Assembly (NCBI GenBank): GCA_965242665.1
Contig: OZ251484.1
Coordinates: 1,470,249 to 1,534,248 of the forward strand
DNA: 64,000 bases
Source of the DNA: Dehalococcoidia bacterium
GTDB taxonomy: Bacteria; Chloroflexota; Dehalococcoidia; Lucifugimonadales; VXLM01
Direction: 5' to 3'
Part shown: one piece after another, positions 4,844 through 33,003 of the stretch
Layout: every line of letters starts with the position of its first letter
Numbering within the stretch: position 1 is the first letter of the stretch
Position numbers and translations under genes: made by a program
The notes under the pieces: generated by a model
What the model was told of the DNA's origin: nothing
Databases searched by the model: none
What the model saw: the letters and a program-made list of their open reading frames with translations, nothing else

Positions 4844-5134
4844 GTGTCGCTCACTTCCGACGAAGTACGGCTTATCGCACTGTTGGCGAGAGTCGGCATG
4901 ACCGAAGAAGAGATCGAACTCATGCGGGAGCAGCTCTCGGACATCCTGTCGCACTTTCGCGTGCTTCAGCAAATCGATACCGACGGCGTCGAGCCAACGG
5001 CCTACTCCGTCGAAACGAATTCCGTCATGCGGGACGACGAACCGCGGCCGGGCCTGCCCGCCGAAGACGCCCTGGCGAACGCGCCGCGCCGCGAAGGCGA
5101 CTACGTTCGCGTCCGCCCTGTGCTCGACAACTAG
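4844..5134 (+). CDS. gatC: Asp-tRNA(Asn)/Glu-tRNA(Gln) amidotransferase subunit C
   Basis: A 96-aa protein (MSLTSDEVRLIALLARVGMTEEEIELMREQLSDILSHFRVLQQIDTDGVEPTA) lying immediately upstream of gatA. Confidence 0.9.
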   Translation: MSLTSDEVRLIALLARVGMTEEEIELMREQLSDILSHFRVLQQIDTDGVEPTAYSVETNSVMRDDEPRPGLPAEDALANAPRREGDYVRVRPVLDN

Positions 5135-5137: not shown

Positions 5138-6709
5138 ATGCCATCCATCGAAGTCGAAGCGATGACCGTCCAAAGGGCCAGGCAACTGCTCGATACTGGA
5201 GAAGTCTCCGCGGTCGAGTTGGCAGAAGCATTTCTGGACCGCATCGACGCGATCGACCCCGCGTTGAAGGCGTTCGTCACCGTTACGCCCGAGCGTGCGA
5301 GAGCGCAGGCGCGCAAAGCGGACGAACGCATTGCGGCAGGAGATGCCCACGCACTGACCGGCATCCCAATGCAGTTGAAGGACAACATGGCCACCAAGGG
5401 GGTGCGGACGACGTGCTCCTCGCGGATGCTGGCAGACTTCGTGCCTCCATACGATGCCGCCGTCACGCGCAAGCTGTACGACCAAGGCGCAGTTCTGCTC
5501 GGAAAGGGCAATCTCGACGAGTTCGCAATGGGATCGTCGACGGAGAACTCCGCCTTCTTCCCAACCCGCAACCCGTGGGACACCGCGCGCGTGCCCGGGG
5601 GAAGCAGCGGGGGGCCGGCCGCCGCAGTCGCAGCGGGAGAGTGCGTATACGCCCTGGGCTCCGATACGGGGGGCAGCATCCGCCAACCCGCCTCGTTTTG
5701 CGGCGTCGTCGGCCTGAAGCCAACCTACGGACTCGTGAGCCGATACGGACTGGTCGCCTTCGCCAGCTCCCTCGACCAGATCGGCCCCATCACCAAGAAC
5801 GTCAGCGACGCAGCCATCGTCCTCAACGCCATCGCAGGACACGACCCGCGCGATGCGACGTCGATCGACTCTCCCCCGCACGACTATACTCGATCTCTGA
5901 CCGGAAGCATCGATGGACTCCGGATCGGCATTCCAAAGGAGTACTTCGTCGCCGGGGTGGATCCCGGAGTGGATGCGGCGGTACGGACGGCGGTCGAGAT
6001 GATGGAAAGCTTGGGGGCAATCGTCTCGGAGACATCGCTGCCCAGCACGCCCTACGCAATGGCGGTCTATTACATCGTCGCGCCGTCGGAGGCATCGGCG
6101 AATCTGGCGCGGTACGACGGAGTGAAGTACGGCTACTCGGTGGATTCCCGCCTTCGCGGGAATGACGTGGGAGGGTGCGGGAACGACTGGGGGGCTGGAG
6201 GGAATGACGCGGCGGCTGGCGGGAGCAAGGCGGGGGCTGGAGGGAATGACGTAGCCGGGATGACCACATGGGACGCGCTGGAGAAGACTAGGCAGGATGG
6301 ATTTGGGGCGGAGGTCAAGCGGCGCATCATGCTTGGAACCTATGCGCTCTCGGCCGGATACTACGACGCATGGTACAAGAAGGCGCTTCAGGTGCGTACT
6401 CTCATTCGACGCGAGTTCAATGCTGCATTCGAGGATTTCGACGTGCTGGTATCTCCCACATCTCCAACGACCGCATTCCCATTTGGAGAAAAGACGGAAG
6501 ACCCCTACACGATGTACTTGAACGACGTGTTTACGCAGCCCGCCAATATCGCAGGAATACCCGCCATATCCGTACCAGCGGGAATGTGCGGCGGACTCCC
6601 AGTGGGGCTCCAGTTCATGGCCTCGCACTTCCAGGAAGCCCAGCTCCTCCGGGCAGCCTACGCCTACGAGCAAGCAACGGAGTGGCACACGCTTCGGCCA
6701 GAACTCTAG
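5138..6709 (+). CDS. gatA: Glutamyl-tRNA(Gln) amidotransferase subunit A, carrying an in-frame ~38-aa insertion derived from the repeat element
   Basis: Amidase-signature family with GGSSGG and a TDTGGSIRQP-type motif. The C-terminal region ...GFGAEVKRRIMLGTYALSAGYYDAWYKKALQVRTLI... is canonical GatA. The extra segment [38 protein letters not shown] at nt ~6143-6265 is encoded by the palindromic repeat. Confidence 0.9.
   Translation: MPSIEVEAMTVQRARQLLDTGEVSAVELAEAFLDRIDAIDPALKAFVTVTPERARAQARKADERIAAGDAHALTGIPMQLKDNMATKGVRTTCSSRMLADFVPPYDAAVTRKLYDQGAVLLGKGNLDEFAMGSSTENSAFFPTRNPWDTARVPGGSSGGPAAAVAAGECVYALGSDTGGSIRQPASFCGVVGLKPTYGLVSRYGLVAFASSLDQIGPITKNVSDAAIVLNAIAGHDPRDATSIDSPPHDYTRSLTGSIDGLRIGIPKEYFVAGVDPGVDAAVRTAVEMMESLGAIVSETSLPSTPYAMAVYYIVAPSEASANLARYDGVKYGYSVDSRLRGNDVGGCGNDWGAGGNDAAAGGSKAGAGGNDVAGMTTWDALEKTRQDGFGAEVKRRIMLGTYALSAGYYDAWYKKALQVRTLIRREFNAAFEDFDVLVSPTSPTTAFPFGEKTEDPYTMYLNDVFTQPANIAGIPAISVPAGMCGGLPVGLQFMASHFQEAQLLRAAYAYEQATEWHTLRPEL
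6143..6265 (-). repeat. ATTCCCGC-GAAG-GCGGGAAT palindrome-containing repeat element (reverse orientation) inserted in-frame within gatA
   Basis: The DNA reads ggattcccgccttcgcgggaatgacg...ggagggaatgacg.... The same element recurs at 12 or more intergenic loci. Here it adds ~38 codons with no stop codon. Confidence 0.85.
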
Positions 6710-6749: not shown

Positions 6750-6846
6750 TGTCATTCCCACACCATCCCATCATTCCCACACCCCTCACGCCATTCCCAT
6801 ACCTCTCCCGTCGTTCCCGCAACCCTTCCGTCATTCCCGCGAAGGC
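6750..6846 (+). repeat. Repeat-element array (tandem cattcccaca-type units plus a terminal gtcattcccgcgaaggcgggaatct palindrome)
   Basis: Read directly from the sequence in the intergenic region downstream of gatA. Confidence 0.85.
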
Positions 6847-6926
6847 GGGAATCTGGCGCCCCCGCGTCCGACGACCCCTCACTCCCGCGCGCCCGGGGCG
6901 AACAACAGCGCCCCCATGAGCCCGCG

Positions 6927-8654
6927 TCACTCCCGCGCGTCTGGGGCGAACTCCACCTCCCAAATGCGGTCGGTGCCGTCGAACTGCCCGGTGACGATCC
7001 GCGCGATGCCGTACTGTGGAAGACCGACCCCGGCCAGACACTTGCCGTCGAACAGCACGCCGCGCACGTCGAAGTCAAAGTCGAGGTTGTCGAACCCATG
7101 CTCCCTACGGCGACTGTCCGGAAGATCGTCGAGAGCCTCGGGAAAGACGTGCAGGAAGAAGGGCACATCAGTATCGGCGCCGCCGCACGGCTCCTTGACG
7201 TAGTACAAATTGCCCCCATCGAGGTACACGTCGAACTCCGAGCGCGCAACGGGTTCGTTGGAAGTGATCGATTGGTACTCGGAGATGAGTTTGGGCCCTT
7301 GCACGACATGCGCTATACTCCAAACCTCCGCCCAATCGAGTCGGACTCGACCTGTGCGAATCCCTGCGATGTCGTACTGCGGGAGATCGACGCTGGCCAG
7401 ACATCTGCCGTCGAATAGCAAGCCGCGGTTGCCGACAGCGAAGTCGAATCTGTCGAACTTATGCTCCCTGCGGCGAATGTCCGGAAGATCGTCGAGGGCC
7501 TCGGGAAAGACGTGCAGGAAGAAGCGCGCATCGAGATCCGATCTGTTGCACGGCTCCTTGAGGAAGTACACCGTGCCGTCAATGAGATACACGTCGAAAT
7601 CCTTCTGAGCCAAGGGCTCGATGGACGTGACCGACCTATACGTGGATCGATGCCATGCCGTCAAGCCGGCCATGTCGTAGAGGAACAATTGCCGGTTCTG
7701 TGGAGTGAGGAGTGCGTCCGTGGCGAATCGTCGGCGAGCGACGAGGAATTTGTGACCCGCAGTAGAAGGGTATCCAAAATCTATGAAGGCCAAGTTTAGA
7801 TAGTACGACACTGCGTGCAGAGGCAGCAGTTCTCGGATGCCGCCGCGATCGGTGACGATGACCGTCCCTCCCGCAGTCGCCTCGCGCATGGCAAGCGCGT
7901 CCCGCTCCGCCGCCTTCGCTGCCTTCGCCGCTCTCTCCTCCGCGTAGTACCCAGCGAAGCCTCTCATCTGGAAGCTGGAGACTGCAAAGAGCGCGGCTGC
8001 GGCCACGGCAACGGCCGCGATGACGCCGTCCCGACCGGCCAGCCTCCTCGCCAACAGCAGGACGATGGTGAAGAAGACCAACGGGAGGCCGATATAGTAG
8101 ATACTCTCGAAGTCATTGAGTGCGGTATTGTGGCGCATTGGCAGCGCCCAGAAGAAGCCGAACGATGCCAGGGTAACGAACAGGATTCTCAGACGAACGA
8201 ACAGAGAGCCGATCAGACACGCCGCAGACAGAACGACGCCGAGTACGACGACCCTGTCTTTCGGCAGCCACGCAGGACCTTGAGCCGTATTGCCCTCCCC
8301 AAGCAAGGCGTAGGGAATGAACATTCGGACGATGTCTCGGAACTGCCCTTCCAGGAAAGAACTCCAGCCTATGTGATCGGCACTTCCGATCCCGCCAGAC
8401 CCGGTGCGCTTCAGCATAGACTTGAAGGACGGCAATTCCGTCAGCGGCGTTTCCCCGCCTAATGCGGCGTACTCCATCGTGAAGTTGAAGGTGAGGATGG
8501 ACAGGCCAAACCCCAGCACAACTGCGCCCAGCAGCAGGTAGCGGCTGCGAAGCAGCGCGGAGGCCGCGCGTTTTACTTGACATAATACGGGGGGGGGGGG
8601 GGGGGGGGGTAGAAGTTGCGGAGGCAGAACGCGCCCGCAACAGGTCGCGCGCAA
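6927..8654 (-). CDS. Large membrane protein, C-terminal portion (TM segments followed by two tandem ~110-aa extracytoplasmic repeat domains). Probably the same gene as 8113..9303, interrupted at the poly-G tract.
   Basis: This ORF begins with a poly-Pro stretch translated from the homopolymer. Hydrophobic helices follow (LLLGAVVLGFGLSILTF...). The segment FDVYLIDGTVYFLKEPC...FFLHVFPEALDDLPD...RRREH... is then duplicated in tandem (nt ~7000-7300 and ~7340-7640). Confidence 0.55.
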   Translation of the reverse strand: MRATCCGRVLPPQLLPPPPPPPVLCQVKRAASALLRSRYLLLGAVVLGFGLSILTFNFTMEYAALGGETPLTELPSFKSMLKRTGSGGIGSADHIGWSSFLEGQFRDIVRMFIPYALLGEGNTAQGPAWLPKDRVVVLGVVLSAACLIGSLFVRLRILFVTLASFGFFWALPMRHNTALNDFESIYYIGLPLVFFTIVLLLARRLAGRDGVIAAVAVAAAALFAVSSFQMRGFAGYYAEERAAKAAKAAERDALAMREATAGGTVIVTDRGGIRELLPLHAVSYYLNLAFIDFGYPSTAGHKFLVARRRFATDALLTPQNRQLFLYDMAGLTAWHRSTYRSVTSIEPLAQKDFDVYLIDGTVYFLKEPCNRSDLDARFFLHVFPEALDDLPDIRRREHKFDRFDFAVGNRGLLFDGRCLASVDLPQYDIAGIRTGRVRLDWAEVWSIAHVVQGPKLISEYQSITSNEPVARSEFDVYLDGGNLYYVKEPCGGADTDVPFFLHVFPEALDDLPDSRRREHGFDNLDFDFDVRGVLFDGKCLAGVGLPQYGIARIVTGQFDGTDRIWEVEFAPDARE

Positions 8655-9303
8655 GCCCGAAGATGACGAACGGCAGCACCAGGGCCAAGACGTGCCATCC
8701 CAACAGCAACGCGATGCACGTCTTGACGAGCAGCTGACGGAAGCGGCCTTCCTGCACGAAGACGACCATGCCGTGGAAGACCAATAACACCCCGAAGAGG
8801 TCGGGCATCCCCTCGTTGGCTGTCATGTCGTTGTGGTAGAGCAGGTGGTACGACGAGAACGCCAGCAGCGTTGCAGTGAGTGCAACCCACCGGTTGGATG
8901 TGAGGCGGCAGAGCGAGAGATATGCGAGGACCGCCGCGACTGCGAAGAACAGCAGCATGAGGATTCTAGCGGCCATGATTTGGGCGGACGGGTTACCGGA
9001 GACTGGCAGGGTGGCCGCCTTCATGGCTGCGTAGCCGGCCGGCGGGAAGCGGTTGTACGGCGCGTAACGGACTGCGCCGTCGTCGTCTATGAACCGACGA
9101 TGAAACCGCTGGAAGCCGTGTTCGGGGGAGAGGTTCACGGCTATCGTCAGGTGTTCCGAGGATGTCCAGTTGTGATAGTCCCCTCGGTAGAAACGCCCTC
9201 GGTCGTCGCCGAACACGAACACCGTCGACAGCGCAAGCAACAGCAGGGCGAGGGGTAGCAACGGGGATCGCAGCGCGGGCGTGATTCTGTCGAGTGATGT
9301 CAT
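8113..9303 (-). CDS. Polytopic membrane protein, N-terminal portion (putative GT-C-like glycosyltransferase). It is truncated by a frameshift at a homopolymeric G/C tract.
   Basis: This 396-aa ORF has multiple TM helices and a first-loop acidic motif (FGDDRGRFYRGDYHNWTSSEHL...). It reads through the poly-G as PPPPPP and ends 160 codons later in what looks like an out-of-frame tail. Confidence 0.55.
   Translation of the reverse strand: MTSLDRITPALRSPLLPLALLLLALSTVFVFGDDRGRFYRGDYHNWTSSEHLTIAVNLSPEHGFQRFHRRFIDDDGAVRYAPYNRFPPAGYAAMKAATLPVSGNPSAQIMAARILMLLFFAVAAVLAYLSLCRLTSNRWVALTATLLAFSSYHLLYHNDMTANEGMPDLFGVLLVFHGMVVFVQEGRFRQLLVKTCIALLLGWHVLALVLPFVIFGLARDLLRARSASATSTPPPPPPRIMSSKTRGLRAASQPLPAAGRSCAGVWPVHPHLQLHDGVRRIRRGNAADGIAVLQVYAEAHRVWRDRKCRSHRLEFFPGRAVPRHRPNVHSLRLAWGGQYGSRSCVAAERQGRRTRRRSVCGVSDRLSVRSSENPVRYPGIVRLLLGAANAPQYRTQ
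8589..8609. repeat. 21-nt homopolymeric G (coding-strand C) tract
   Basis: The run cataatac[g x21]tagaag is visible directly. It lies at the junction of the two membrane-protein ORF fragments. Confidence 0.95.
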
Positions 9304-18388: not shown

Positions 18389-19189
18389 CTACATTTCGAC
18401 CGCGTCGGGCAAGTCGTCCATGCCGTAGTACTGGTGCTCGATGCGGTCGTCGTACATCTTCACGATGCGGATGCCGGACGGATCGTCGCCGAGCGGGAAG
18501 CCGACTGGGCCGGAGATCACCATGAGCATACGCCCATCGGATGCGTAGGCGTTGCGGTGCCAATGGCCGGAGAATACGCCTGATACGCTGCGCCGGCGCA
18601 GGATGTCCAGCAGCGCCATCCTGCGCTCCTTGGGGATGACGCGCACTTCGGGGCCGGGACCGTCAGGCTCGTCCGGATCCTGGGCGAACAACGGGTGGTG
18701 CATGAACACCACGGTGTGAGCGGCGTTCTCGCTGGCGCGGTCGATGTCGCGGCGGAGGAACTCGAGGAGAGACTCCCATTCGTCTTCTACATCCGAGGGA
18801 TCCGCACACACGGAGCTGTTCAAGACGACGAAATGGCTCCCGCCGGCGTCGAACGAGTAGTTGTCGTCCCCAAACTTGTCGCGGTACCGTCGCAGGCTCT
18901 CCGGCGTGGGAGTGTTTCCAACGTCGCAGTTTCCGGGCGCGAGGTAGATGGGGACGTCCTCGCTCAGTTGGTTCGTAATCCGCATCAACTCTTCGTGCTG
19001 CTCCTCGTTGCGCGGATCTTGGACGAGGTCGCCGGTCACGACCACGAATGCGGGTCGCAGACGGTTGGCTGCCGAGACGGCCTTCTCGTACAAGGCCGTC
19101 TCCGGGAACGTCCCGTCGGAAGGCGCTTGCCCGCGCGTCCGAAACATGCCAAACTGCGGATCGCTCAGATGTATGAAGAAAAACGACAC
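18389..19189 (-). CDS. Metallophosphoesterase (calcineurin-like phosphoesterase)
   Basis: Metal-binding motifs HLSDPQFG, VVVTGDLV, GNCD and GHWH are present. Confidence 0.8.
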   Translation of the reverse strand: MSFFFIHLSDPQFGMFRTRGQAPSDGTFPETALYEKAVSAANRLRPAFVVVTGDLVQDPRNEEQHEELMRITNQLSEDVPIYLAPGNCDVGNTPTPESLRRYRDKFGDDNYSFDAGGSHFVVLNSSVCADPSDVEDEWESLLEFLRRDIDRASENAAHTVVFMHHPLFAQDPDEPDGPGPEVRVIPKERRMALLDILRRRSVSGVFSGHWHRNAYASDGRMLMVISGPVGFPLGDDPSGIRIVKMYDDRIEHQYYGMDDLPDAVEM

Positions 19190-19267
19190 GATGCCACGCT
19201 CCTTGAGATTTCGTTTGATTTACGGTGTGCGGGCGCTCCCATGAATAACCGTCCGGTGCCAAGATCT

Positions 19268-19380
19268 GGATTCCCGCCTTCGCGGGAATGACGATGGCGG
19301 GTGCGGGAATGACGATGACGGGTGCGGGAATGACGATGACGGGTGCGGGAATGACGATGACGGGTGCAGGAATGACCGGG
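19268..19380 (-). repeat. Repeat element: palindrome plus four exact 21-bp tandem units (gcgggaatgacgatgacgggt)
   Basis: The sequence reads ggattcccgccttcgcgggaatgacg, then atggcgggtgcgggaatgacg, then three further units. Confidence 0.9.
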
Positions 19381-19511
19381 CCGCCCGCAGAAATGACGGC
19401 AAGCACACTTCCGATATGGGGGGCAACTCACGCTGCCGATACATCGACTAGAACCCTCCATGATGACGCCTCGATTTTCCGAGGCCATCCTAATTCCGTT
19501 GGCGGCTTCTC

Positions 19512-21189: not shown

Positions 21190-21600
21190 CAAGGTAAACG
21201 GAAACCGGCTTACCGTTTACCTTTGCGGCATGGATTGCGCCCGGGCCGCAAAAGGTTGGACTCTCCGTCATTCCCGCCGGGTCTCGTCATTCCCACACCC
21301 TCCCACGTCATTCCCGCGTAGGCAGGAATCTCCTCAGGCAGCAAGAGGGCGAGACAGGCCGTTGGTGTCATTCCCGCGCAGGCGGGAATCTCCGGTATCT
21401 GCCTATGCCGCCGGATCCGACCCCCCGGTCATTCCCGCGCAGGCGGGAATCTCCGTCTACGTCATTCCCACGAAGGCAGGAATTTCTGTCATTCCCGCGC
21501 AGGCGGGAATCTCCCGTTGCGCGATTGGACGCACCGCTTTGAGAGTTGCCGTCCCCCAGCCGTCATGTCGCAAAACGGAAACCGGCGGGGCATTGACGAA
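21190..21600 (+). repeat. Composite MITE-like element: 5' hairpin, a conserved left flank, an array of gtcattccc units and palindromes, and a conserved ~90-bp right flank
   Basis: The left and right flanks are nearly identical to those of the copy at 40455-40735. They include ...gggccgcaa(a/c)aggttgga(c/t)tctccgtcattcccgccg... and ...ttgcgcgattggacgcaccgc...gccgtcatg(t/c)cgcaaaa. Confidence 0.85.
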
Positions 21601-21657
21601 TGACGTGCGGACATGATATAACCTTTTGCAAAATTCCTGCGGACAGTAGAGGCAGAA

Positions 21658-22407
21658 ATGCGCTTTTCCGGCAAGCTGGTCATCATCATCGCCCTAGCAG
21701 TTACCGTGCTGCTGGTGAGCAACATCATCGCAAGCAAACTTCTGGTGCTCTTCCAACTCCCCTTCGAGTTCTTTGGCAGCAAGAACGTGGTGGTCTCCAT
21801 ATCCGTCATTTGCTTCCCCCTGAGCTACATCATCAGCGACGTGCTTACGGAGGTATACGGTTTCCGCGTCGCCCGCGGAACGATATGGCTGGGATTCGGC
21901 TGCAACCTCGTCATGGTCATCCTGTTCTGGATCGCCATCAATATCCCGCCTGTAGGCTTCTGGGGGAATCAGGAAGCGTACGAGACGATACTCGGCTCGG
22001 CCTTCTGGCTGTTGGCTGGCAGCTTCGCGGCGTACATCGTGGGCGAATTCTCCAACGCTTCCGTCATGGTCGTCCTCAAGAACCGGACGGAAGGCCGCCA
22101 TCTATGGATGCGGACCATAAGCTCCACGATAGTCGGACAGGGAATCGACTCGATCCTGTTCTACTCCATCGCCTTCGGAGTATCGGGCGATCAGCCTTGG
22201 TCCGTAGCGATCGGCGCGGCGATAACCGCATGGATCGTCAAGAGCCTCTACGAAGCAGCCGCGACACCGCTCACGTATGCGGTCGTCGGATGGCTCAAGC
22301 GCACGGAGAAGATGGACATCTACGACGCGCCGCACTCCCTGAACCCGTTCGCCGTATTCGGCGACGATGACGGAACGAGCGTCAACCGGGCGGCCGCAGC
22401 CGCGTAA
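21658..22407 (+). CDS. yhhQ: Queuosine precursor transporter (YhhQ/DUF165 family)
   Basis: A 249-aa, ~6-TM protein with the YhhQ family signature (...IISDVLTEVYGF...NLVMVILFWIAI...). Confidence 0.8.
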   Translation: MRFSGKLVIIIALAVTVLLVSNIIASKLLVLFQLPFEFFGSKNVVVSISVICFPLSYIISDVLTEVYGFRVARGTIWLGFGCNLVMVILFWIAINIPPVGFWGNQEAYETILGSAFWLLAGSFAAYIVGEFSNASVMVVLKNRTEGRHLWMRTISSTIVGQGIDSILFYSIAFGVSGDQPWSVAIGAAITAWIVKSLYEAAATPLTYAVVGWLKRTEKMDIYDAPHSLNPFAVFGDDDGTSVNRAAAAA

Positions 22408-22416
22408 TCACGGTAG

Positions 22417-22459
22417 CAGCCGTGTGGACGGGCGTGAGAAGCGTCCGTTCACACGGCTG
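22417..22459 (+). terminator. Stem-loop (10-bp stem cagccgtgtg/cacacggctg) immediately downstream of yhhQ
   Basis: An inverted repeat is visible and is followed by tagtgttgacttt. It is not a classic U-tract terminator. Confidence 0.3.
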
Positions 22460-22558
22460 TAGTGTTGACTTTGGGTTGATTGGCATAGTGGTTCAGTCAA
22501 GTTGACCATGCAACACAACCGGTCGGCAGTCGCATAGACAAAGAAAGGGAGCAAACCA

Positions 22559-22744
22559 ATGGGCAAGAACATACAACTCGGAATCCTAGGGCTTGCGCTG
22601 GTCGCAGTGTTCTGTGCGCTCGTAGCATTCGGTGCAGTACGCAGCGGCTCGACCGGCGAGTGCGAAGATGTACAAGTCACATATGCGGACGGCAGGGTCA
22701 TTGACGAGCAGCTCTGCGGTGCTTGGATTCGCATCGACAACTAG
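22559..22744 (+). CDS. Small (61-aa) membrane/secreted protein
   Basis: An AAGGGAG ribosome-binding site lies 8 nt upstream. An N-terminal hydrophobic helix (LGILGLALVAVFCALVAFGAV) is followed by a Cys-containing tail. Confidence 0.45.
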   Translation: MGKNIQLGILGLALVAVFCALVAFGAVRSGSTGECEDVQVTYADGRVIDEQLCGAWIRIDN

Positions 22745-22946
22745 GCGAACAGGTGGCGGGGTTGCACCCGCCAATCGACCCAAAGTCAACACAACCCACG
22801 CAACCAGGCTCACCCGTTACGACGCCGGGAAGGGAAGCGGCAGACAGGTTGCCTCCCCCTGCCTTGCCTAGGGACACCGTCCAATTGGGGAAGGCAACTT
22901 CTCTCGCGGAATAGAAAAGCACCCCCGGTGCCCGCTAATGCGCGCG

Positions 22947-24698
22947 CTACCCGTGCGTCGCGGAGCGCGTCCAGTTCTCGCCGGTCTCTGCGACCCACTC
23001 CGGCCGCTTGCCGGAGGCCTCCTTGGTGATACTGGCCCCAAAGAGGAAGATGAGTCCTCCCACGAATGCCCAGGTCAGCAGGAGCACGACAGAGGAGAAC
23101 GGCAGATAGAGGAGATTTTGCTGTCCGGTCACGCTGACGAACCAGAAGAAGGTATGTTTGACGATCTCGAATAGGACGACTGCGACGATGGCTCCGAAAG
23201 TCGCGTCTCGCCAACGAACGTAGGTAGTGGGCAGCGTTCGATAGACGACCCCAAACACCACGGCGGTCAAGAACAACGGCAAGACAGCCGAGGCCACCCC
23301 GGTTACGCTGACGACCACTTGGTTTATGGGGCCGCCGACGATGGGCAGCGCCGCGCTGATGCTCATGACCAGTTGGAACACAACGGTCAACCCAATCGAC
23401 ACGAGGAAGATCAACACAACGCAGATCGCCATTATGATTTCAAAGAGCGTGGCGCTGAGGATCTTGCGGTGCGGCACGCCGAATATGCGGTTGATCGCTC
23501 GGTTCGCCGCCATGTTGAGTCCGTTGGCGCCAATGACGATTCCAACGACGGCGACGACTCCGACGGCGAGGCTGGCGTCGAAGAGGTGGTCGACGGCGGC
23601 GTCGAAGAAGTCCGACGACGCAGGAAAGAAGAAGAGGAAGATGTCCGCAAGTTCCATCTTGATGGTGGGGGGATCTACGAACGCGGAGAACATCAAGATG
23701 ACGATCGCGACGAGGGGGAAGAACGACAGCAGCGTGAAGAAGGCCAACGACGCAGCGAGGTCGATCCCGCCCGCATTCACCAAAGTCCGGACCGCGCGCC
23801 ATAGGGCCTTGGCTCTCCACACGCCCGGCCCCTGAGGATGGTACGCAGCGATACGCGGCGCAAGGTCGAACACCAGGGGAGCCGCGGGGTGCAGGGCGCT
23901 GGATGGAGAGGTTCTTCCGAGCATATCTGCAATGGATCCGCGGGTGTGGTCCCCCGCCCGCTCACTCACCGCATATGCAGCGTCGATAGATCCTCTCGCA
24001 GCAGCGGCGACGCACTCGACCGCGCTGGCGTGATCGACGTTCTGCACCTCGAGCGCCCCCTCGACCACGTTTCTCGACACATGCGACAAACGCTCCGGCT
24101 CCCGGCCCACGCTGCCCACGAGGAGCCTGGCCGTGTCCTGGGTGAGCTGGGGAACATTCCCTCCGGTTGCAGAGACGCCGGTAATGACTCCGACGATAGC
24201 CGCCTTCGCCGCGCCGCCCTCATCGACCCCAGCGTCCAAGATGGCCTCGAACGCGCCAAACGACGCCTCGGAAACCGCTTTGCCCCGCTCAACCCCGACG
24301 GATACCGCGCCCTCGATCGCCCCCTCCACCGCGTCCGCCCCCGCAACCCCAATCTCCAACCCGACCTCGTTCGATCCGCGTATCGCCCCTTCCACCGCCT
24401 CCCGAATGAGCGGCCGAGTAGATTTCGATGCCCCGGACGTGCCCTGCACGACCCCAAGCACGACGTCTCTGGCCAAGCCCGTAGCCTCGTTCCGTATCTC
24501 GGTCAAGGCCCCTATTGCGCCTCGCGCCGCCTCGCGCGCGAGAAATCCCGCCCCCCTTCCGTCGCCGTCCGACCCCTTGATCGCAAGCTGCGACGCGATC
24601 CGCACCCTGTCGCCCCAACGTCCGTTCGCGCGTCCGCCCTCGGAGGCAGAGTCGACGAGCAGTTCGTGGACTAGCCGTCCCAGTCTCCCCAGTTTCAT
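22947..24698 (-). CDS. YihY/BrkB (ribonuclease BN-like) family membrane protein, fused to an N-terminal ~270-aa Ala/Gly/Glu-rich repeat domain
   Basis: The C-terminal half (…GIDLAASLAFFTLLSFFPLVAIV…) is a typical ~6-TM YihY protein. The N-terminus has degenerate AVEGAIxG repeats. Confidence 0.65.
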   Translation of the reverse strand: MKLGRLGRLVHELLVDSASEGGRANGRWGDRVRIASQLAIKGSDGDGRGAGFLAREAARGAIGALTEIRNEATGLARDVVLGVVQGTSGASKSTRPLIREAVEGAIRGSNEVGLEIGVAGADAVEGAIEGAVSVGVERGKAVSEASFGAFEAILDAGVDEGGAAKAAIVGVITGVSATGGNVPQLTQDTARLLVGSVGREPERLSHVSRNVVEGALEVQNVDHASAVECVAAAARGSIDAAYAVSERAGDHTRGSIADMLGRTSPSSALHPAAPLVFDLAPRIAAYHPQGPGVWRAKALWRAVRTLVNAGGIDLAASLAFFTLLSFFPLVAIVILMFSAFVDPPTIKMELADIFLFFFPASSDFFDAAVDHLFDASLAVGVVAVVGIVIGANGLNMAANRAINRIFGVPHRKILSATLFEIIMAICVVLIFLVSIGLTVVFQLVMSISAALPIVGGPINQVVVSVTGVASAVLPLFLTAVVFGVVYRTLPTTYVRWRDATFGAIVAVVLFEIVKHTFFWFVSVTGQQNLLYLPFSSVVLLLTWAFVGGLIFLFGASITKEASGKRPEWVAETGENWTRSATHG

Positions 24699-25244
24699 TC
24701 CTTATCGACTCCGCAGACCGGATGCCGTCAATCCGATCGATCACAACTCCGCGGTACGCTCCAACCCTTCCTATGCAGTCACCGCCGAGGGGGCATTAAA
24801 GGCATAGAAGGGAACAGCCTCCACGCGTGCAGCGGCGACGCGCCGGCACACGCAGTCTCGCAGCGCCCCGCTTCCGATGCTACGAGCGGCGGCCGTGCTT
24901 CCTCGCAGGGGCGAATATCGAATCATCGGGGAACGCGGCGGCGCGGCGGCGCATGGCAGACGGCAACCACCTGCCTCCGATACCAGCCAACACGACCATT
25001 CCGCCCCCGACGCCAATCAGAGCCCTCTTCAAGAACCCTCTTCTAGAAACGCCGTCTACGCCCTCGTAACGTTTGCCCATACTTCAAGAACACTCCACAG
25101 GTGTCTCAGTACACTCCCGGCCATTATAGCGCAAGGCGCGCATGTTGGGAAGGGCGCTGGGGCTATCGTTCCGTTCGATCTATCGCCGCGGATCGACCCC
25201 AGTTCGCCGGTATGAACCGCCCCTAGACCATAAATCCACCTGTC

Positions 25245-25507
25245 CACGTCATTCCCACACCCTACCCACGTCTTCCCGCGAAGGCGGAAATCTCCCCCGG
25301 CTGTACCGCAAGCCAGGTCAAGTCCGCCCGTCATTCCCGCGAAGGCAGGAATCTCCCCCCGGCTGTACCGCAAGCAGGTCAAGTCCGCCCGTCATTCCCG
25401 CGAAGGCGGAAATCTCCCCGTCTGTACCGCAAGCAGGTCAAGCCCGCCCGTCTGTACCGCAAGCCAGGTCAAGTCCGCCCGTCATTCCCGCGAAGGCGGG
25501 AATCTCC
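25245..25507 (+). repeat. Repeat-element array with a ~60-bp period (four palindromes, each preceded by ccggctgtaccgcaagc(c)aggtcaagtccgccc)
   Basis: Four tandem copies of ...ctgtaccgcaagcaggtcaagtccgcccgtcattcccgcgaaggcgg(g/a)aatctcc... are visible. Confidence 0.9.
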
Positions 25508-25576
25508 CGTTGCCCCCATGCCAATAGATCGAACCGATCCCCGGGGTCGACAGCGACTCGACGAAGAGAGCCTCCG

Positions 25577-26812
25577 CTACAACTCGAACGCCCCCTCCGC
25601 GGCGTCGACCACATGCCGCGCGATCTGCAAGCTCGACGTCGCAGCCGGCGACGGCGCGTTGAGGACGTGCACAGCACGAGCGCCGCGCACGATCCGAAAG
25701 TCCTGCAAGAGATTCCCACCATCGTCGACGGCCTGCGCCCGCACTCCAGCATTGGGGCGCCACAAATCCTCGCCCCGAATCTCCGGCAGCAACTTCTGCA
25801 GCGACCGAACGAAAGAACGCTTGAACAACGAACGGTACTGCTCCCGCAACCCAGTCGACCAATGCCCCATCGCCATGCGCCAAAATCCCCCATACGCCGC
25901 AGTCTCCACCGCGTCCCGCACATCGAACGACGCCTTCCCGTACCCCTCGCGCGCCAGCGCCAACACCGCGTTCGGACCTGCCTCCACGCTCCCATCGATC
26001 CGCTTCGTGAAATGCACACCCAAGAACGGCAACCGTGGATCAGGCACAGGATAGATCAAACCATTTACGAGATGCCCCCGCTCCGGCCGCAAAGAATAAT
26101 ACTCCCCCCGAAACGGTATGATACGCAGACCCTCCCCCGCGCCCATCCACCGAGCCGCCCTGTCCGCGTGAAGCCCGGCGCAGTTGATGACGTTCCCCGC
26201 CCTGAACACGCCGCCCGTCGTTTCGAGATACACCCCGTCGCCGCGCGCCTCCACGCCCAACACCCCCGTGCCAAGCCGAATCTCTCCCCCGTCCGCCGTG
26301 AAATCGTCGGCATACGCCCCGCAAACCCGCGCATAGTCCACGATCCCCGTCTCCGGCGACCATAGAGCCTTGATCCCCGCGGCGTGCGGCTCGATCTCCC
26401 GCAGACGCTCCTTGCCAATCAACTCCAACCCCTCTACCCCGTTGGCCGCCCCGCGCTCGAACAACCCATCCAGACGAGACGCCTCCTCCTCATCCGTCGC
26501 CGCAATCACCTTCCCGCACATCTCATAGTCGATGCCCCGCTCGTCGCAGTACCGACGCAGCGCCCGGTTCCCCGCATAGCAGAAATTCGCCTTCTGCGAA
26601 CCCGGCGCGTAGTATATCCCCGCATGGATGACCCCGCTGTTATGCCCCGTCTGATGCGACGCAAGCGCACCCTCCTTCTCCAAGACGACGAACCGCCGGC
26701 CAGGATGCCTCCGCGCCAGAGTCATCGCAGTCGCAAGACCGATGATCCCCCCTCCGATCACCGCAGCATCATATCGAGTCCCACTCTCACTCATTCGCAG
26801 CATCCGTGCCAA
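25577..26812 (-). CDS. lhgO: L-2-hydroxyglutarate oxidase (FAD-dependent)
   Basis: YDAAVIGGGIIGLATAM...LEKE...ASHQTGHNSGVIHAGIYYAPGS.KA.FC..GNRA aligns closely with E. coli LhgO. The start may instead be the internal M at 26794. Confidence 0.8.
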   Translation of the reverse strand: MARMLRMSESGTRYDAAVIGGGIIGLATAMTLARRHPGRRFVVLEKEGALASHQTGHNSGVIHAGIYYAPGSQKANFCYAGNRALRRYCDERGIDYEMCGKVIAATDEEEASRLDGLFERGAANGVEGLELIGKERLREIEPHAAGIKALWSPETGIVDYARVCGAYADDFTADGGEIRLGTGVLGVEARGDGVYLETTGGVFRAGNVINCAGLHADRAARWMGAGEGLRIIPFRGEYYSLRPERGHLVNGLIYPVPDPRLPFLGVHFTKRIDGSVEAGPNAVLALAREGYGKASFDVRDAVETAAYGGFWRMAMGHWSTGLREQYRSLFKRSFVRSLQKLLPEIRGEDLWRPNAGVRAQAVDDGGNLLQDFRIVRGARAVHVLNAPSPAATSSLQIARHVVDAAEGAFEL

Positions 26813-26942
26813 GTCGAAACGAATATGCCGCTATGATACCCCATGACAGATCCTCACACCGCGGCGGGTTGCCCGCACACCGGAAATCCCCCTCCCCGTC
26901 ACTCCAGCCATGCAACAGTCTCCAAATGCGGAAACCTCCCCG

Positions 26943-27569
26943 TCACTCCACCCAGCGGTACAGCGCATCCAACCCGTAATACGCCGCATACGACACCGCG
27001 AAATACTTCACCATCTTCCCCAACAAGCAAGCGCCCACGAACCTCCAGAGAGAGTAGCGCAGAGACCCCGCCGCAAATCCAGCCGCATCGAAGAACGGAT
27101 TCGGAGTCGCCGCAAACGCGAATATCGTCACCGCCCCACGCCTCTCGATCCACCCCTGAACTCGCCGATACCACCGATTCCTCCCCAACGCACGCTCCAC
27201 CGCGCCATGAGAACCCCGCCCAGCCAAATACCCCGAAACCTCCCCAATCGTCGACCCTGCAGCTCCAGACGCAGCAACCATATACGGCGCCCACCCAGGA
27301 ATCGTCGCCCCCAAAATCGCCGCCCCAAGACCAGGCACAGGCAGCACGAACGTCCCGCTGCCAACCACATTCACCAAGAATATCCCCGCATACCCCCACT
27401 CATCCAACGACGCCAACCGATCCCGAAAGACCAACGCCGCCACAGTAACCGCCGCTATCGGCAAGAACGGCGCCGCAACCCACACCCACCGCACAAACCC
27501 CCGACCCGCGCGCCCCGACGCCGATTCACTCCGACCCTCCAACTCCTCCCCCGCACAGCCCCCGCTCAT
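26943..27569 (-). CDS. DedA / SNARE-associated (VTT-domain) family membrane protein
   Basis: The segment ...GYAGIFLVNVVGSGTFVLPVPG...GAVTIFAFAATPNPFFDAAGFAAG... is the DedA signature. The ORF-track N-terminus (to 27647) overlaps the upstream gene and is Arg/Trp-rich junk, so the start is placed at MSGG... Confidence 0.65.
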   Translation of the reverse strand: MSGGCAGEELEGRSESASGRAGRGFVRWVWVAAPFLPIAAVTVAALVFRDRLASLDEWGYAGIFLVNVVGSGTFVLPVPGLGAAILGATIPGWAPYMVAASGAAGSTIGEVSGYLAGRGSHGAVERALGRNRWYRRVQGWIERRGAVTIFAFAATPNPFFDAAGFAAGSLRYSLWRFVGACLLGKMVKYFAVSYAAYYGLDALYRWVE

Positions 27570-27570
27570 C

Positions 27571-28914
27571 TCACCGCACCAACCTCCGAAACGGCTCCCG
27601 ACCAATCTCCGCCTCCAACAACGTATCCAACTCCCCCTCCAACGCACGCATGATCACACGCATCGACGCCTCCGCAGCATCCGCCGTAACCGCAATATCC
27701 TCATCCGTATGCGCCAACGTCGCCTTGAACGACGTCGGACAAAACACCCCCCGCTTCGACATCTCCTGAATGAACAGCGTATCGATCCCCTTCTTCATCG
27801 ACGGATCCGGAACCTCGAACGACAACGTCGGCGCAGTATGAAGCCCCGTAACCTCCGCAGCTATCCCCACCGAATCCACCGCACCCTGCAGCGCCGCCGC
27901 CATCTTCTCCCCAATCTCTCGAAACCGCTCCGTCGAATTCCGACGCTTCAACTCAGTGATCGTCGACACAGACGCCGCAAGACCAATGTTGTCGCTCCAA
28001 TACGAACTCGATATGAACATCCGGTCCGCAGGCTCCATCGCCTCACGCGAACCCACCACACAACCCATCGCATACCCATTCGACATCGCCTTCGCAAACA
28101 CCGACATATCCGGCGTCACCCCAAGCCACTCCTGAACGCTCCCCAACGATATCCGCCACCCAGACGAAACCTCATCGAAGATCAGCAGCGCCCCATTCGC
28201 ATGACACAACGCCTTCACCTCCTCCAAATACCCCTCCCTCGGACGCTCCGAACGCATCGGCTCCATCATCACCGCCGCCACCTCCCCCTCATGCTCACCG
28301 AACAACCCCCGCAAATTCTCGATGTCCCCATAGATGAACGGAACCGCCGTCCCCGCCAACGCACGAGGAACCCCAATCGGCTCAATCCCCGCAAACGGAA
28401 ACTCCCCAGACTCCGGATCCACCAAATAGTTCGCAGACTGATACCAATCATGCCAACCGTGATACCCCGAAAACAACACCTTGTCCCTCCCAGTCGCCCC
28501 CCGCGCTATCCGCACAGCCACCGCGCAAGACTCCCCTCCACCCTTCGTATACCGCACCATCTCCGCGCTCGGAATCGTATCCACCAACAACTCCGCAAGC
28601 TCGATCTCCAACGGACTGTTCAACGTAAACAAACTCCCCCGACCCACCTGCTCCCGCACAGCGCCATCCACCACATCATCCGCATGACCCAAGATGATCG
28701 CCGTCACCGCGTTCACCCAGTCGATATACTCGTTCCCATCCACATCCACGAACCGCGACCCCTTCGCACGCTCCGCATAGATCGGACTAATCGGATGAGC
28801 AAAACTGCTCGCCCTCCGACTAATCAACTGCGTCTTCCCCGGTATCAGCGTCTCCGCCCGCTCATACAACTCCAACGACCGTCCAACCCGACTCTCTCCC
28901 GATGCCATACCCAC
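27571..28914 (-). CDS. Class-III (PLP-dependent) aminotransferase, glutamate-1-semialdehyde aminomutase-like
   Basis: A 447-aa protein with ...GYHGWHDWY... and a PLP-Lys region ...VFAKAMSNGYAMG.... It lies in an operon with dedA and lhgO. Confidence 0.75.
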   Translation of the reverse strand: MGMASGESRVGRSLELYERAETLIPGKTQLISRRASSFAHPISPIYAERAKGSRFVDVDGNEYIDWVNAVTAIILGHADDVVDGAVREQVGRGSLFTLNSPLEIELAELLVDTIPSAEMVRYTKGGGESCAVAVRIARGATGRDKVLFSGYHGWHDWYQSANYLVDPESGEFPFAGIEPIGVPRALAGTAVPFIYGDIENLRGLFGEHEGEVAAVMMEPMRSERPREGYLEEVKALCHANGALLIFDEVSSGWRISLGSVQEWLGVTPDMSVFAKAMSNGYAMGCVVGSREAMEPADRMFISSSYWSDNIGLAASVSTITELKRRNSTERFREIGEKMAAALQGAVDSVGIAAEVTGLHTAPTLSFEVPDPSMKKGIDTLFIQEMSKRGVFCPTSFKATLAHTDEDIAVTADAAEASMRVIMRALEGELDTLLEAEIGREPFRRLVR

Positions 28915-29040
28915 TCCCTCCTTACAAGAAATCTCCCTCGCCCCTCATCCACCACACACCCCATCACCCCCACATTCTACCACACCCCGCACAACAGCGC
29001 CCAAGCTCCCTGCTCCAATGTAAAAAGCGACGATGTGTCT

Positions 29041-29300
29041 CCCGTCATTCCCACCCACGTCTACGTCACTCCCGCACCGCCTACGTCATTCCCACCCATG
29101 TCTACGTCATTCCCGCGAAGGCGGGAATCTCCCCCTCATACCACACAACCCCCACGTCCGGCACATCCTGCACCGCCTCCCGTCATTCCCACACCCTCCA
29201 CGTCACTCCTGCACCGCCCACGTCATTCCCACAACACACCCACGTCATTCCCGCGAAGGCGGGAATCTCCCCAATCGACAATCAGAAATCACAAATCATC
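29041..29300 (+). repeat. Repeat-element array (two palindromes plus about eight gtcattccc units), followed by the secondary caatc(g/a)acaatc repeat
   Basis: Read directly from the intergenic region. Confidence 0.9.
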
Positions 29301-29760
29301 AATCCCCCTCCACCGCCTCATACACCCTCACCCCCCTCCTGCTCACAGCCCGCAGCCGTCCCTCCCTCTCCAACGACCGCATCGCCCCCTGAACCGCCGG
29401 CGCGCCATGCCTCCGAAACTTCCCCATGATCTTCCCCTGCGCCTTCGGACGCTCGCAATACTCCAACACCTGCTCCGCAAGCAAATCATCCACCTCAGGA
29501 AGCGCCGAACGCGGCACGACCAACGTAACCCCCGCGTTCCCATCCACATCCTCCCCAAACATGTACTCCAACCGACCCTCATGCCTCCGCAAGAACGCCC
29601 GCAAACGCTTCCGCAGCACGCCCCCCACCCCGCTCGCGCCGTACCCATGCACCACCTCCAATCCTCCCCCAGACCGACGCAGCGCCCCGTTATACGCCTC
29701 AATGAACGCAGGCAGCGCCTCCGACCACGTCTGCCCATGCAAATCCAACGTCTCCATCAC
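29299..29760 (-). CDS. Smr-domain protein
   Basis: METLDLHGQTWSEAL carries the LDLHG motif that is diagnostic of Smr (MutS2 C-terminal-like) nicking-nuclease domains. Confidence 0.7.
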   Translation of the reverse strand: MMETLDLHGQTWSEALPAFIEAYNGALRRSGGGLEVVHGYGASGVGGVLRKRLRAFLRRHEGRLEYMFGEDVDGNAGVTLVVPRSALPEVDDLLAEQVLEYCERPKAQGKIMGKFRRHGAPAVQGAMRSLEREGRLRAVSRRGVRVYEAVEGD

Positions 29761-29825
29761 TCCCTACCCCCGCAAAACTACTCCGCCCCTACGCATCCAC
29801 CCATCACTGCCCCAAATCTGCCCAC

Positions 29826-29893
29826 GCCACTCCCGCACCGCCTACGTCATTCCCACAACACTCACGTCATTCCCGCGAAGGCGGGAATCTCCC
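29826..29893 (+). repeat. Repeat element (units plus a palindrome)
   Basis: The sequence reads cactcccgcaccgcctacgtcattcccacaacactcacgtcattcccgcgaaggcgggaatctcc. Confidence 0.9.
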
Positions 29894-29912
29894 CCCCATA
29901 CTACCACCCCCC

Positions 29913-30626
29913 TCACGGCCTGCACACCTTGCAACCCACAACATCCCGCCCCGTCTCCCCAGCCCGCCCAAAAGCATCCTCCCGAGAACCAAACGGCCCA
30001 TGCCACTCATTCTCATGGACATTGATAGGACCGCGCTTCCTACCTTGCCAGTACGTGCAAGTCTCCCTGTGAACCCGCGCATAGTTGTATATCTTCTCCT
30101 CGTACACCCCGTAACCCACGGCACTCCCATCCGGTGCCGGTTGCCGCGGCGGAACGCCCGGCTGCAGATTATCCCGTATCCTCTCCACCTCCCGCTTCTC
30201 CTCCTCCGCACCAATCCGCCCAAGCACCTCGGCAAAGTCTGTCAACCGACTCTCCACGTACCGCACGGACAAGTCTTTCCCACCCGGGTGCGAGGACTCG
30301 TTTCGCGCGTCCACGATCACGCGAACCAAGTTCAAAGACGACCGGTCGTGCTCAAACGCAGATCCGAAAACATCCTTCCAATAGAGGTCGACGATGTGGG
30401 GAATGGCGTTGAGGTCTATCGCCCCCTCGACCCCTTCTCCGCGCCGGCGGCGCCGTTGGAACGCCTTCCGCCCAGCATCATTCAAAGACGACCGTATCGC
30501 CTCCTCCGCCCCATCGCCGAAAACACACCGCATATGCCGCACGACGAACGCACGCATCGCATCCCGAAAGATATCCACCGCCCGATTCAGCGCATCCCTA
30601 TTCGGTCGCTCCCTCATCGTACTCAC
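29913..30626 (-). CDS. Swt1-like HEPN-domain protein with a conserved Cys/His-containing C-terminal domain that is shared with the SPFH protein downstream
   Basis: The N-terminal half contains ...VRVIVDARNESSHPG..., an Rx4H HEPN motif in a Swt1-like context. The C-terminal ~65 aa, YGVYEEKIYNYARVHRETCTYWQG...EWHGPFGSREDAFGRAGETGRDVVGCKVCRP, is paralogous to residues ~270-340 of the 562-aa neighbour. A GTG start follows a GGAGG ribosome-binding site. Confidence 0.6.
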   Translation of the reverse strand: MSTMRERPNRDALNRAVDIFRDAMRAFVVRHMRCVFGDGAEEAIRSSLNDAGRKAFQRRRRRGEGVEGAIDLNAIPHIVDLYWKDVFGSAFEHDRSSLNLVRVIVDARNESSHPGGKDLSVRYVESRLTDFAEVLGRIGAEEEKREVERIRDNLQPGVPPRQPAPDGSAVGYGVYEEKIYNYARVHRETCTYWQGRKRGPINVHENEWHGPFGSREDAFGRAGETGRDVVGCKVCRP

Positions 30627-30649
30627 CAGCCGAACGCCTCCAACGAATA

Positions 30650-30697
30650 CTCACTCCCGCACCCTCCCCGTCATTCCCGCGTAGGCGGGAATCTCCC
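30650..30697 (+). repeat. Repeat element (single palindrome copy)
   Basis: The sequence reads ccgtcattcccgcgtaggcgggaatctcc. Confidence 0.9.
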
Positions 30698-30764
30698 CAC
30701 GGCCGGCACGCCCCTCACCCAACGCGCCGTCTCCGGCAACTACCCAAATATAAACGAGGCTGAC

Positions 30765-32845: not shown

Positions 32846-33003
32846 ATCGCCTCTCCAGTCATTCCTACCACTTGCCTGCCCCAACCCTCCCCCCAGTCAC
32901 ACGGCCCGGCCATCCCACCGCCCCGGCACAGGCCGGAGCCCGGCCCCCGCCGAACTCCCACGCACGCCAGAGCGGCGAAACACCGATCCCTGCCGTCATT
33001 CCC

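Follow-up and report, generated by a model that had tools for sequence, protein, structure and literature searches.

We analyzed a 64,000-nt stretch of DNA (the window) from Dehalococcoidia bacterium (GCA_965242665.1, contig OZ251484.1, positions 1,470,249–1,534,248, forward strand), in which gatA, the gene for an amidase-signature enzyme, carries an in-frame insert belonging to a repeat family dispersed through the same window. We consider it likely that a lineage-specific hairpin repeat was inserted once in a variable loop of gatA and has since become a frame-neutral minisatellite in a working enzyme. The insert occupies a single shared site in a monophyletic group of relatives, its copy number changes in 21-bp steps, and the rest of gatA is under purifying selection.

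The gatA insert and its repeat family

gatC lies directly upstream of gatA, an order that is the same in the relatives, and secA, divergently oriented, lies upstream of the pair. The components of the locus are as follows.

4844–5134, plus strand: gatC, an open reading frame (ORF; Pfam GatC, E=3.6e-22)
5138–6709, plus strand: gatA, an ORF of 523 aa, amidase-signature enzyme carrying the insert
About 6141–6265 (6143–6265 being exactly codons 336–376), reverse orientation: the whole inserted element, in-frame in gatA
6141–6167, minus strand: hairpin module of the insert, 27 nt, encoding (V)DSRLRGND; on the minus strand it consists of the tag CGTC (6167–6164), the stem ATTCCCGC (6163–6156), the loop GAAG (6155–6152), the stem GCGGGAAT (6151–6144) and the tail CCA (6143–6141)
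6167–6250, minus strand: four 21-bp half units, each composed of tag, 5' arm and ~9 nt, two of them degenerate
6167–6187: half-unit heptad VGGCGND, codons 344–350
6188–6208: half-unit heptad WGAGGND, codons 351–357
6209–6229: half-unit heptad AAAGGSK, codons 358–364
6230–6250: half-unit heptad AGAGGND, codons 365–371
6251–6268, minus strand: terminal piece VAGMTT (GGGATGAC), a unit-like motif without one A

Base 6167 is common to the hairpin tag and the first heptad because codon and unit phases differ by one base. The terminal piece represents a degenerated last unit or else what is left of the loop that was originally present.

The gatA product matched solved GatA chains (4WJ3, 2DF4, 3H0L and others) at E~1e-154 in two blocks, the first extending to query residues 334–338 and the second starting at 379–382. 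Approximately 40 residues between the blocks were unmatched, the unmatched GatA stretch being 43 aa; an example peptide of the predicted insert is GNDVGGCGNDWGAGGNDAAAGGSK. The solved GatA proteins themselves differ by 4–11 unaligned residues at this site. The original prediction, which was made from the sequence of the window, had given GatA a length of 523 aa and an excess of ~38 aa over typical GatA. The length was correct, and the excess amounted to 36 aa over the nearest insert-free orthologs (487 aa), from which the insert is absent, and to 38–52 aa over the solved chains (471–485 aa). The alignment to orthologs and GatA structures that it had proposed thus placed the extra segment where it had been expected.

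The prediction had further described the insert as a palindromic element. A perfect 20-nt palindrome, ATTCCCGC-GAAG-GCGGGAAT, is indeed present at 6144–6163 on the minus strand, and the in-frame position of a family copy was confirmed; however, the palindromic part accounts for only 20 of ~123 nt, the remainder being a tandem array of the 21-bp half units. Tandem Repeats Finder reported 21-bp and 42-bp periods over 6156–6252 inside gatA. The copy was also correctly described as free of stop codons and a multiple of three in length, but freedom from stops is not noteworthy, given that five of the six reading frames of the consensus element are open.

The insert shares its tag, stem, loop, tail and upstream 21-bp units with intergenic copies at the DNA level, which bears out its predicted identity as a reverse-oriented copy of an abundant family. 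The palindrome pattern of this family, searched with up to 3 mismatches, gave 29 matches in the window versus 0 in 100 shuffles, and the tag-plus-arm word GTCATTCCC occurred 47 times versus 0.77 expected. Hairpins in the window total 24 and half units 22, the latter always on the tag side. A common architecture was found at ~13 loci, each of which ends in one complete 27-nt hairpin module; in 10 of the 13 loci compared side by side, a head-to-tail run of half units precedes it on the tag side. The typical half unit, GTCATTCCCGCACCCTCCCAC, consists of the tag, the 5' arm and ~9 C-rich bases, without the 3' arm. Hairpin tags (n=24) are CGTC (20), TGTC (2) or GGTC (1). The stem has 8 bp and starts with AT, the loop is GAAG, GCAG or GTAG in all 24 (GNAG), and a 3-nt tail starting with C is present in 23 (CTC in 13, CCA in 6, CCC in 2). 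Twenty-three of the hairpins are intergenic, the gatA copy being the sole in-gene hairpin in the window, and the intergenic arrays have periods of 20–22 bp according to Tandem Repeats Finder. The other copies in the window are listed below.

6751–6855, plus strand: second family copy, 42 bp past the gatA stop and opposite in orientation to the gatA copy; its hairpin module (6829–6855, plus strand) follows half units and is an exact match to the Neisseria NTS consensus discussed below
19266–19398, minus strand: intergenic copy with four near-identical 21-bp half units and a hairpin (Tandem Repeats Finder, 97% matches, period 21)
21267–39728, all plus strand: 20 further hairpins, some of them accompanied by half-unit arrays, all between genes, at about 21267–21513, 25248–25506, 29044–29269, 29846–29891, 30669–30695, 33657–33798, 34518–34668, 39462–39523 and 39682–39728
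40516–40644, plus strand: intergenic copy with the clearest architecture, 21-bp half units GTCATTCCCGCACCCTCCCAC followed by a hairpin (Tandem Repeats Finder, 97%, period 21)

All 20 hairpins at 21–41 kb are on the plus strand, unlike two of the three that lie before 20 kb, which have the opposite orientation. GC skew is ~0 over 1–24 kb; from there on it stays between −0.1 and −0.5 as far as the window extends, regardless of gene strand. A replication-strand bias of the repeats may underlie the orientation and skew pattern, as may an origin or terminus close by. Neither Rfam nor tRNA scans of the window gave matches, and a terminator scan revealed no terminator-like site at the gatA hairpin.

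The terminal piece GGGATGAC is unit-like and could be old gatA sequence, and the sister clade has CCGGGGAGCATG at its position. The array might accordingly be thought to have arisen in place from a unit-like loop, the intergenic family being unrelated or derived from the gatA array. We regard this as very unlikely: the gatA copy has a complete 27-nt tagged hairpin, identical to intergenic copies and to hairpins in other phyla, which could not have been built codon by codon from a loop. Moreover, the sister clade has neither the insert nor the family, and no heptad array without a hairpin was seen among 21 alleles.

A shared insertion of changing length

The ortholog set consisted of the 21 best GatA matches (P0001–P0021), which are cluster representatives from ENA, JGI and Logan assemblies. 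All 21 carry the insert at the same site, between YGYS and WDALE. The carrier proteins have 495–567 aa and are 86–97% identical outside the insert; between S334 and W378 they hold 16–87 residues, compared with 7 in the next orthologs (73–78% identity). Insert-free orthologs read YGYSTDTPGSMWDALE at the insert site. Each carrier insert is composed of the hairpin octapeptide, 0 to about 10 heptads and the terminal piece, which is kept as xxGMTT in 21 of 21 insert-bearing orthologs, and its length changes in 7-residue steps.

A neighbour-joining tree was built with the insert removed and with the six closest insert-free orthologs (487 aa each). The carriers were monophyletic and formed two subclades: subclade A (the window and P0001–P0004) with GAGGND-type heptads, and subclade B (P0005–P0021) with alternating MGRGYD and AVCGND heptads. 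The synonymous divergence (dS) between the subclades is ~0.5. The insert-free sister is too divergent (dS ~1.5) for the target site to be reconstructed. Proteins with almost no branch length between them differ by one to three heptads.

At the DNA level, the hairpin and 21-bp units were found in the gatA of the window, of its nearest relative (locus L083) and of the long-array carriers L082, L084 and L088. The window and L083 have the same 27-nt hairpin module, from which that of subclade B differs by a single synonymous loop change; by estimate, ~2 synonymous changes were expected in the hairpin and 1 was observed, on too few sites to support conservation of its nucleotides beyond the needs of the protein. 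The window and L083 (dS 0.054) are separated by one clean 21-bp indel and one 3-bp indel inside gatA, and by another 21-bp indel in the intergenic copy downstream of gatA.

The insert and the family go together. Family words and hairpins are present in all long-array loci (L082, L083, L084 and L088), with 3–6 hairpins per 13–22 kb. No hairpin copy was found in the best 80 other species-representative GatA loci, where family 8-mers number ≤5 per locus; these include L002, the nearest insert-free Dehalococcoidia chromosome among them. A GatA search of genome contigs likewise found no insert-bearing genome among the best 80 species representatives. Two relatives have short scars, with net inserts of 9 (L001) and 16 residues (L087), and their gatA hairpins are mutated (DSRHRGKD and DSRSGEND, respectively). 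No intact family copy was found in L001 (13 kb) or L087 (5 kb); in L001, one decayed hairpin persists upstream of gatC, at the place occupied by arrays in L082, and a second site holds a fragment. According to the original prediction, the extra segment should not occur in relatives free of the family. This agrees with the data: the insert-free sister clade lacks the family, and in the short-scar relatives the hairpins are decayed. Clean excision of the insert was not seen among the carriers.

Repeats of this kind confuse assemblers, and the insert could in principle be an assembly or sequencing artefact, a repeat-induced chimera joining an intergenic repeat into gatA. One long contig looks chimeric: ena:ERZ25070167:ctg394128 (720,692 bp) holds the secA-gatC-gatA-response-regulator locus twice, inverted, at 144–152 kb (L092) and 617–625 kb (L093). 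The two copies are 1.6% divergent, and their gatA arrays differ by 84 bp, or 4 units (566 versus 538 aa). The doubled locus could be genuine, as a large inverted duplication, or could stem from a fold-back or strain-chimeric assembly. A gene neighbouring gatA in the window is also split, with a G21 homopolymer in the ORF overlap. Nevertheless, the insert has the same site in 21 cluster representatives, which come from three data sources and numerous samples and some of which lie on long contigs (0.7–3.6 Mb), and misassembly as its origin is excluded for this reason. The frame is always kept, the gatA flanks are contiguous on both sides, and the unit spacing in gatA is always 21 bp, unlike that of intergenic arrays. 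An artefact is therefore scarcely credible.

Frame, selection and enzyme function

Both the hairpin module (27 nt) and the modal unit (21 nt) have lengths divisible by three, which makes the family nearly frame-neutral by construction. The element would be translated in gatA because, in addition, the frame used (DSRLRGND and the xxGxGND heptads) is free of stops. Unit spacings inside gatA are 21 bp in 20 of 20 cases, compared with 22 of 50 in intergenic arrays of the same genomes, where the range is 18–29 (Fisher p=1.6e-5, spacing multiple of 3 versus not). Selection in gatA purges variants that are not frame-neutral.

For the gatA flanks, the ratio of nonsynonymous to synonymous divergence (dN/dS) is 0.17 in the comparison with L083, 0.12 with subclade B and 0.09 with the insert-free L002. 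K81, S156, S180 and R396 are invariant in the GatA alignment, and they align with K79, S154, S178 and R358 of S. aureus GatA, of which we take the first three to be catalytic and the last to be substrate-binding. Judged from these residues and from the selection on the flanks, the enzyme does not appear to have been inactivated by the insert, in agreement with the original prediction. Within the array, 42 codons show 6 nonsynonymous and 4 synonymous differences between the window and L083, compared with a flank dN of 0.009, which suggests that constraint is relaxed there.

An AlphaFold2 (AF2) model has the GatA fold, with TM 0.75–0.81 to solved GatA (Foldseek), and residues 335–377 are modeled as coil with pLDDT 25–41. 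The insert probably lies in a surface loop, as indicated by the length variation of the site, the Pro/Gly-rich insert-free sequence, the hydrophilic insert and the low confidence of the model in this region.

We propose that an element of the type described below as CGTC-1, dRS3 or NTS was inserted once, in the ancestor of a small uncultured Dehalococcoidia clade, at a permissive, variable loop of GatA. The insert would be translated as a Gly/Asp/Asn-rich, probably disordered loop, and the enzyme would keep working. Since then whole 21-bp units have come and gone, as the indels between relatives show directly; the most plausible cause is slippage during replication or unequal recombination among the units. 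Slippage may be helped by the pairing of each unit's 5' arm with the single 3' arm; the mRNA-sense fold of the gatA array uses alternative pairings of this kind. Selection would act only on frame and stops, and the array would have collapsed to a 9–16-residue scar where the family decayed. We favor neutrality of the array because the heptad sequences diverge freely and because the array collapsed where the family decayed.

Several points weigh against this proposal or parts of it. The 146-nt gatA array region folds no better than shuffled sequences (z −0.6 as DNA, −1.4 as RNA) and gives no indication of an extended structured element. Short-read assemblies may give incorrect copy numbers. The boundaries of the insertion and any target-site duplication are not reconstructable, and xxGMTT may be old loop. 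With a mean pLDDT of 68.5, the AF2 model as a whole is mediocre, and the insert is presumed to be translated on the basis of its open frame and the selection on the flanks. Finally, long arrays (5–11 units) have been kept in most lineages over dS ~0.5, which could point to usefulness rather than neutrality.

The last point bears on a different reading, in which the heptad array has been co-opted: its length would tune the stability, assembly or activity of GatCAB, and hence Gln/Asn decoding fidelity, or it would offer a new interaction surface, the variation being adaptive. The insert is retained clade-wide over this divergence, mostly as long arrays, and the heptads follow a fairly regular G-x-G-N/Y-D pattern at a site 19 residues upstream of the substrate-binding Arg. 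Mycobacterial gatA mutations are reported to alter mistranslation and drug tolerance (PMC8406222, PMC7541841). However, the regular pattern is encoded anyway by the DNA unit through its 5' arm, the heptads differ freely between subclades (GAGGND versus MGRGYD and AVCGND), and the dN of the array is several-fold above that of the flanks. Length varies among near-identical strains without a trend, the array collapsed where the repeat family decayed, and no structure is predicted for it by AF2. We consider co-option unlikely.

It is highly improbable that the segment is removed before the enzyme functions, in the manner of an intein, an intron or translational bypass. The insert hairpin would form in the mRNA with an 8-bp stem of about −13.7 kcal/mol. 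However, the window contains no Rfam intron or other RNA family, and the insert is too short and variable for an intein and has neither a nucleophile nor HN-type ends. Strict frame and 21-bp units, moreover, would be expected only if the insert is translated.

Hairpin class, neighbouring genes and significance

Repetitive extragenic palindromes (REPs) tagged with CGTC have been defined by an unpaired CGTC tag (with TGTC and CCTC variants allowed), an 8–9-bp stem starting with AT and a 4–5-nt loop (PMC3733652). Their 3-nt tail is mostly CCA, they have no dedicated transposase, and in-frame copies in genes occur occasionally (PMC3733652). The family CGTC-1, with an 8-bp stem and a 4-nt loop, includes dRS3 of Neisseria and RPE-6 of R. 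conorii (Di Nocera et al., 2013, PMC3733652). The window hairpins agree with this class in tag, stem, loop and 3-nt tail, the gatA copy reading CGTC...CCA. They resemble it also in being mostly intergenic, with occasional in-frame copies and no transposase beside them, and differ in that their tails are more often CTC (13) than CCA (6). Head-to-head dimers are the rule in CGTC-1 and head-to-tail arrangements negligible (PMC3733652), whereas the window has no head-to-head dimers but head-to-tail half-unit arrays capped by one hairpin. The dimer arrangement is an organisational habit in that report and lies outside the sequence definition of CGTC-1. CGTC repeats are known from five phyla, and the main text of PMC3733652 does not count Chloroflexi among them.

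The same hairpin is contained in a second description. The 28-nt Neisseria sequence NTS, CGTCATTCCCGCGMAVGCGGGAATCYRG, contains dRS3 (Chenal et al., 2025, PMC11893778). SsnA, a 94-aa GIY-YIG nuclease (cd10448), binds NTS as a single-stranded hairpin and cuts a few bases upstream; binding and cleavage depend critically on the GTC preceding the palindrome and the C following it (PMC11893778). NTS-related motifs (SRM) and ssnA co-occur in many phyla, ssnA often being flanked by the motif (PMC11893778). The match rule of that study allows 1 mismatch or uses the degenerate SRM pattern. Twenty-one window hairpins match CGTCATTCCCGCGMAVGCGGGAATCYRG with ≤3 mismatches, three exactly and three with 1 mismatch (gatA copy included), and the SRM regular expression is matched by 17. 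The window hairpins retain the GTC in front of the palindrome and, in 23 of 24, the C behind it; the clustering of the repeats between accessory-looking genes is a further resemblance to the NTS/SRM system. The main text of PMC11893778, in turn, mentions neither Chloroflexi nor tandem half-unit arrays.

A blastn search against plasmid records revealed an identical 25-mer in Azospirillum, sphingomonads, Neisseria, Legionella, Ca. Manganitrophus and others. The hairpin stands alone, without upstream half-unit arrays, in the Neisseria, Novosphingobium and Azospirillum samples examined. The 25-nt hairpin was also observed under annotated rbbA and ileS (isoleucine-tRNA ligase) genes, in Azospirillum lipoferum 4B (NC_016587.1) and Sphingopyxis indica (NZ_CP076395.1); these may be further in-gene copies in translation-related genes of Proteobacteria.

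Rickettsia palindromic elements (RPEs), which the original prediction had invoked by analogy, are selfish repeats in-frame in housekeeping genes, including translation-related ones, whose host proteins remain functional and in which the insertion sites are presumed to be loops. Their in-frame occurrence in protein-coding genes is credited to Ogata et al. (2000, cited in PMC3733652). RPE-1 is ~100–150 bp long and palindromic along most of its length. The gatA insert behaves similarly in being in-frame in a functional housekeeping gene and absent from the orthologs of family-free relatives. The comparison proved sound and goes beyond analogy, since the hairpin falls in the CGTC-1 class together with RPE-6; this family relation excludes the long RPE-1 type, from which the gatA element differs in being palindromic only at 6144–6163, the remainder being a tandem array. 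The host also differs, being a free-living-type Chloroflexota rather than an obligate intracellular alphaproteobacterium. To our knowledge, copy-number variation between relatives is not a described feature of RPEs. Such variation is typical of variable-number tandem repeats (VNTRs) in bacterial coding regions, for example those of surface proteins, and of mycobacterial interspersed repetitive units (MIRUs), which usually lie in surface or contingency genes or between genes. Like a VNTR, the gatA array differs in unit number between close strains, with 1 to about 11 heptads across the 21 orthologs, and its unit is a multiple of three that keeps the frame. It differs from VNTRs in lying in a core translation enzyme and in being derived from, and capped by, a dispersed REP hairpin.

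Three other candidates were rejected. For a REP mobilised by a RAYT, a REP-associated tyrosine transposase (IS200/IS605 Y1), the tag is CGTC rather than GTAG, and no Y1_Tnp domain was found in the scanned window ORFs. A miniature inverted-repeat transposable element (MITE) does not fit, as the palindrome is at one end only and the other end is a plain tandem array. An intein or self-splicing intron is not supported by any Rfam family in the window, and the insert consists of 16–87 variable low-complexity residues. No target-site duplication is visible at the gatA junctions.

It is conceivable, but distinctly doubtful, that the hairpin-capped arrays are footprints of an Ssn-type nuclease, which would nick upstream of the hairpin so that slipped repair would yield a nuclease-driven mutable minisatellite, and gatA length polymorphism would produce heritable differences in mistranslation. 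If so, the enzyme that sets Gln/Asn decoding fidelity would carry a rapidly varying length polymorphism. The searches for a nuclease and a transposase covered ~150 kb of a several-megabase genome (roughly 3.5 Mb). In this range, no GIY-YIG gene was found by Pfam in 20 window genes and 88 small ORFs or by a motif regular expression, nor among the called genes of L001, L082–L084, L087 and L088, and no Y1-transposase gene was found in the window or the related loci. The reference SsnA was not found in the hairpin neighbourhoods on two plasmids.

Other proteins decorated by the repeat were sought with the 43-aa insert. A word-indexed protein search gave only 4 candidates and 2 weak matches, and an exhaustive phmmer search against 1.84 billion cluster representatives yielded two unrelated repeat proteins and otherwise nothing but short, spurious ORFs that overlie intergenic arrays. 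The phmmer search is insensitive to decorated proteins because carriers can hide behind insert-free representatives, as GatA did. Intergenic arrays in the window (18663–19406, 40517–40705, 39499–39807 and similar) give open frames such as VIPAPVIVIPA... and SFPRRRES, and short array ORFs appear as predicted proteins in public collections (P0125–P0130), an annotation artefact.

The gene adjacent to gatA is a single 783-aa ORF in L083 (11834–14185) and is split on the minus strand of the window (6927–9303) into overlapping ORFs at 8113–9303 and 6927–8654. The overlap contains a G21 run (8589–8609), poly-Pro on the coding strand, that is absent from L083. The split may stem from a sequencing error at the homopolymer or from a tract prone to slippage, or it may mark a pseudogene. 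Accessory-looking small genes occupy 29000–45000, several of them separated by repeat arrays; the following were identified.

29299–29760: Smr
29913–30626: Swt1-like HEPN
31157–32884: SPFH/Band 7
33807–34328: HTH_17 excisionase-like protein
41403–44571: three HSDR_N-like proteins

The proteins encoded at 29913–30626 and 31157–32884 share a C-terminal ...GCKVCRP motif, and PADLOC gave nothing solid for the accessory-looking genes between arrays. By its translation, the ORF at 37814–39454 reads as an HtrA-like serine protease; its long Pro/Thr-rich linker is encoded by 24- and 48-bp tandem repeats (38273–38385) unrelated to the hairpin family, and a hairpin pair starts 8 bp past its stop.

In-frame REP and RPE insertion and the CGTC-1 hairpin class are already known. 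Relative to the main texts of PMC3733652 and PMC11893778, the hairpin-capped half-unit minisatellites, the Dehalococcoidia host and the copy-number-variable array in gatA are new. The three names under which the hairpin has been described, CGTC-1 REP, dRS3 and NTS/SRM, denote the same 24–28-nt hairpin, which joins three literatures, and its nearly unaltered occurrence here adds a fifth or sixth phylum to its range. The half-unit arrays represent a previously undescribed architecture and may inform how transposase-less repeats multiply. Arrays of this type give rise to spurious ORFs (DSRLRGND..., VIPAKAGI..., SFPRRRES...) and to orthologs of variable length, and annotation and orthology pipelines should expect both.

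For the organism, the finding extends in-frame selfish repeats, best known in Rickettsia, to uncultured environmental Chloroflexota and to GatA. It goes beyond the classic cases in that the repeat, after its likely single insertion, is still evolving as a minisatellite inside what appears to be a working core enzyme. The resulting natural series of heptad-array lengths at one site amounts to an experiment on the loop tolerance of a conserved enzyme.

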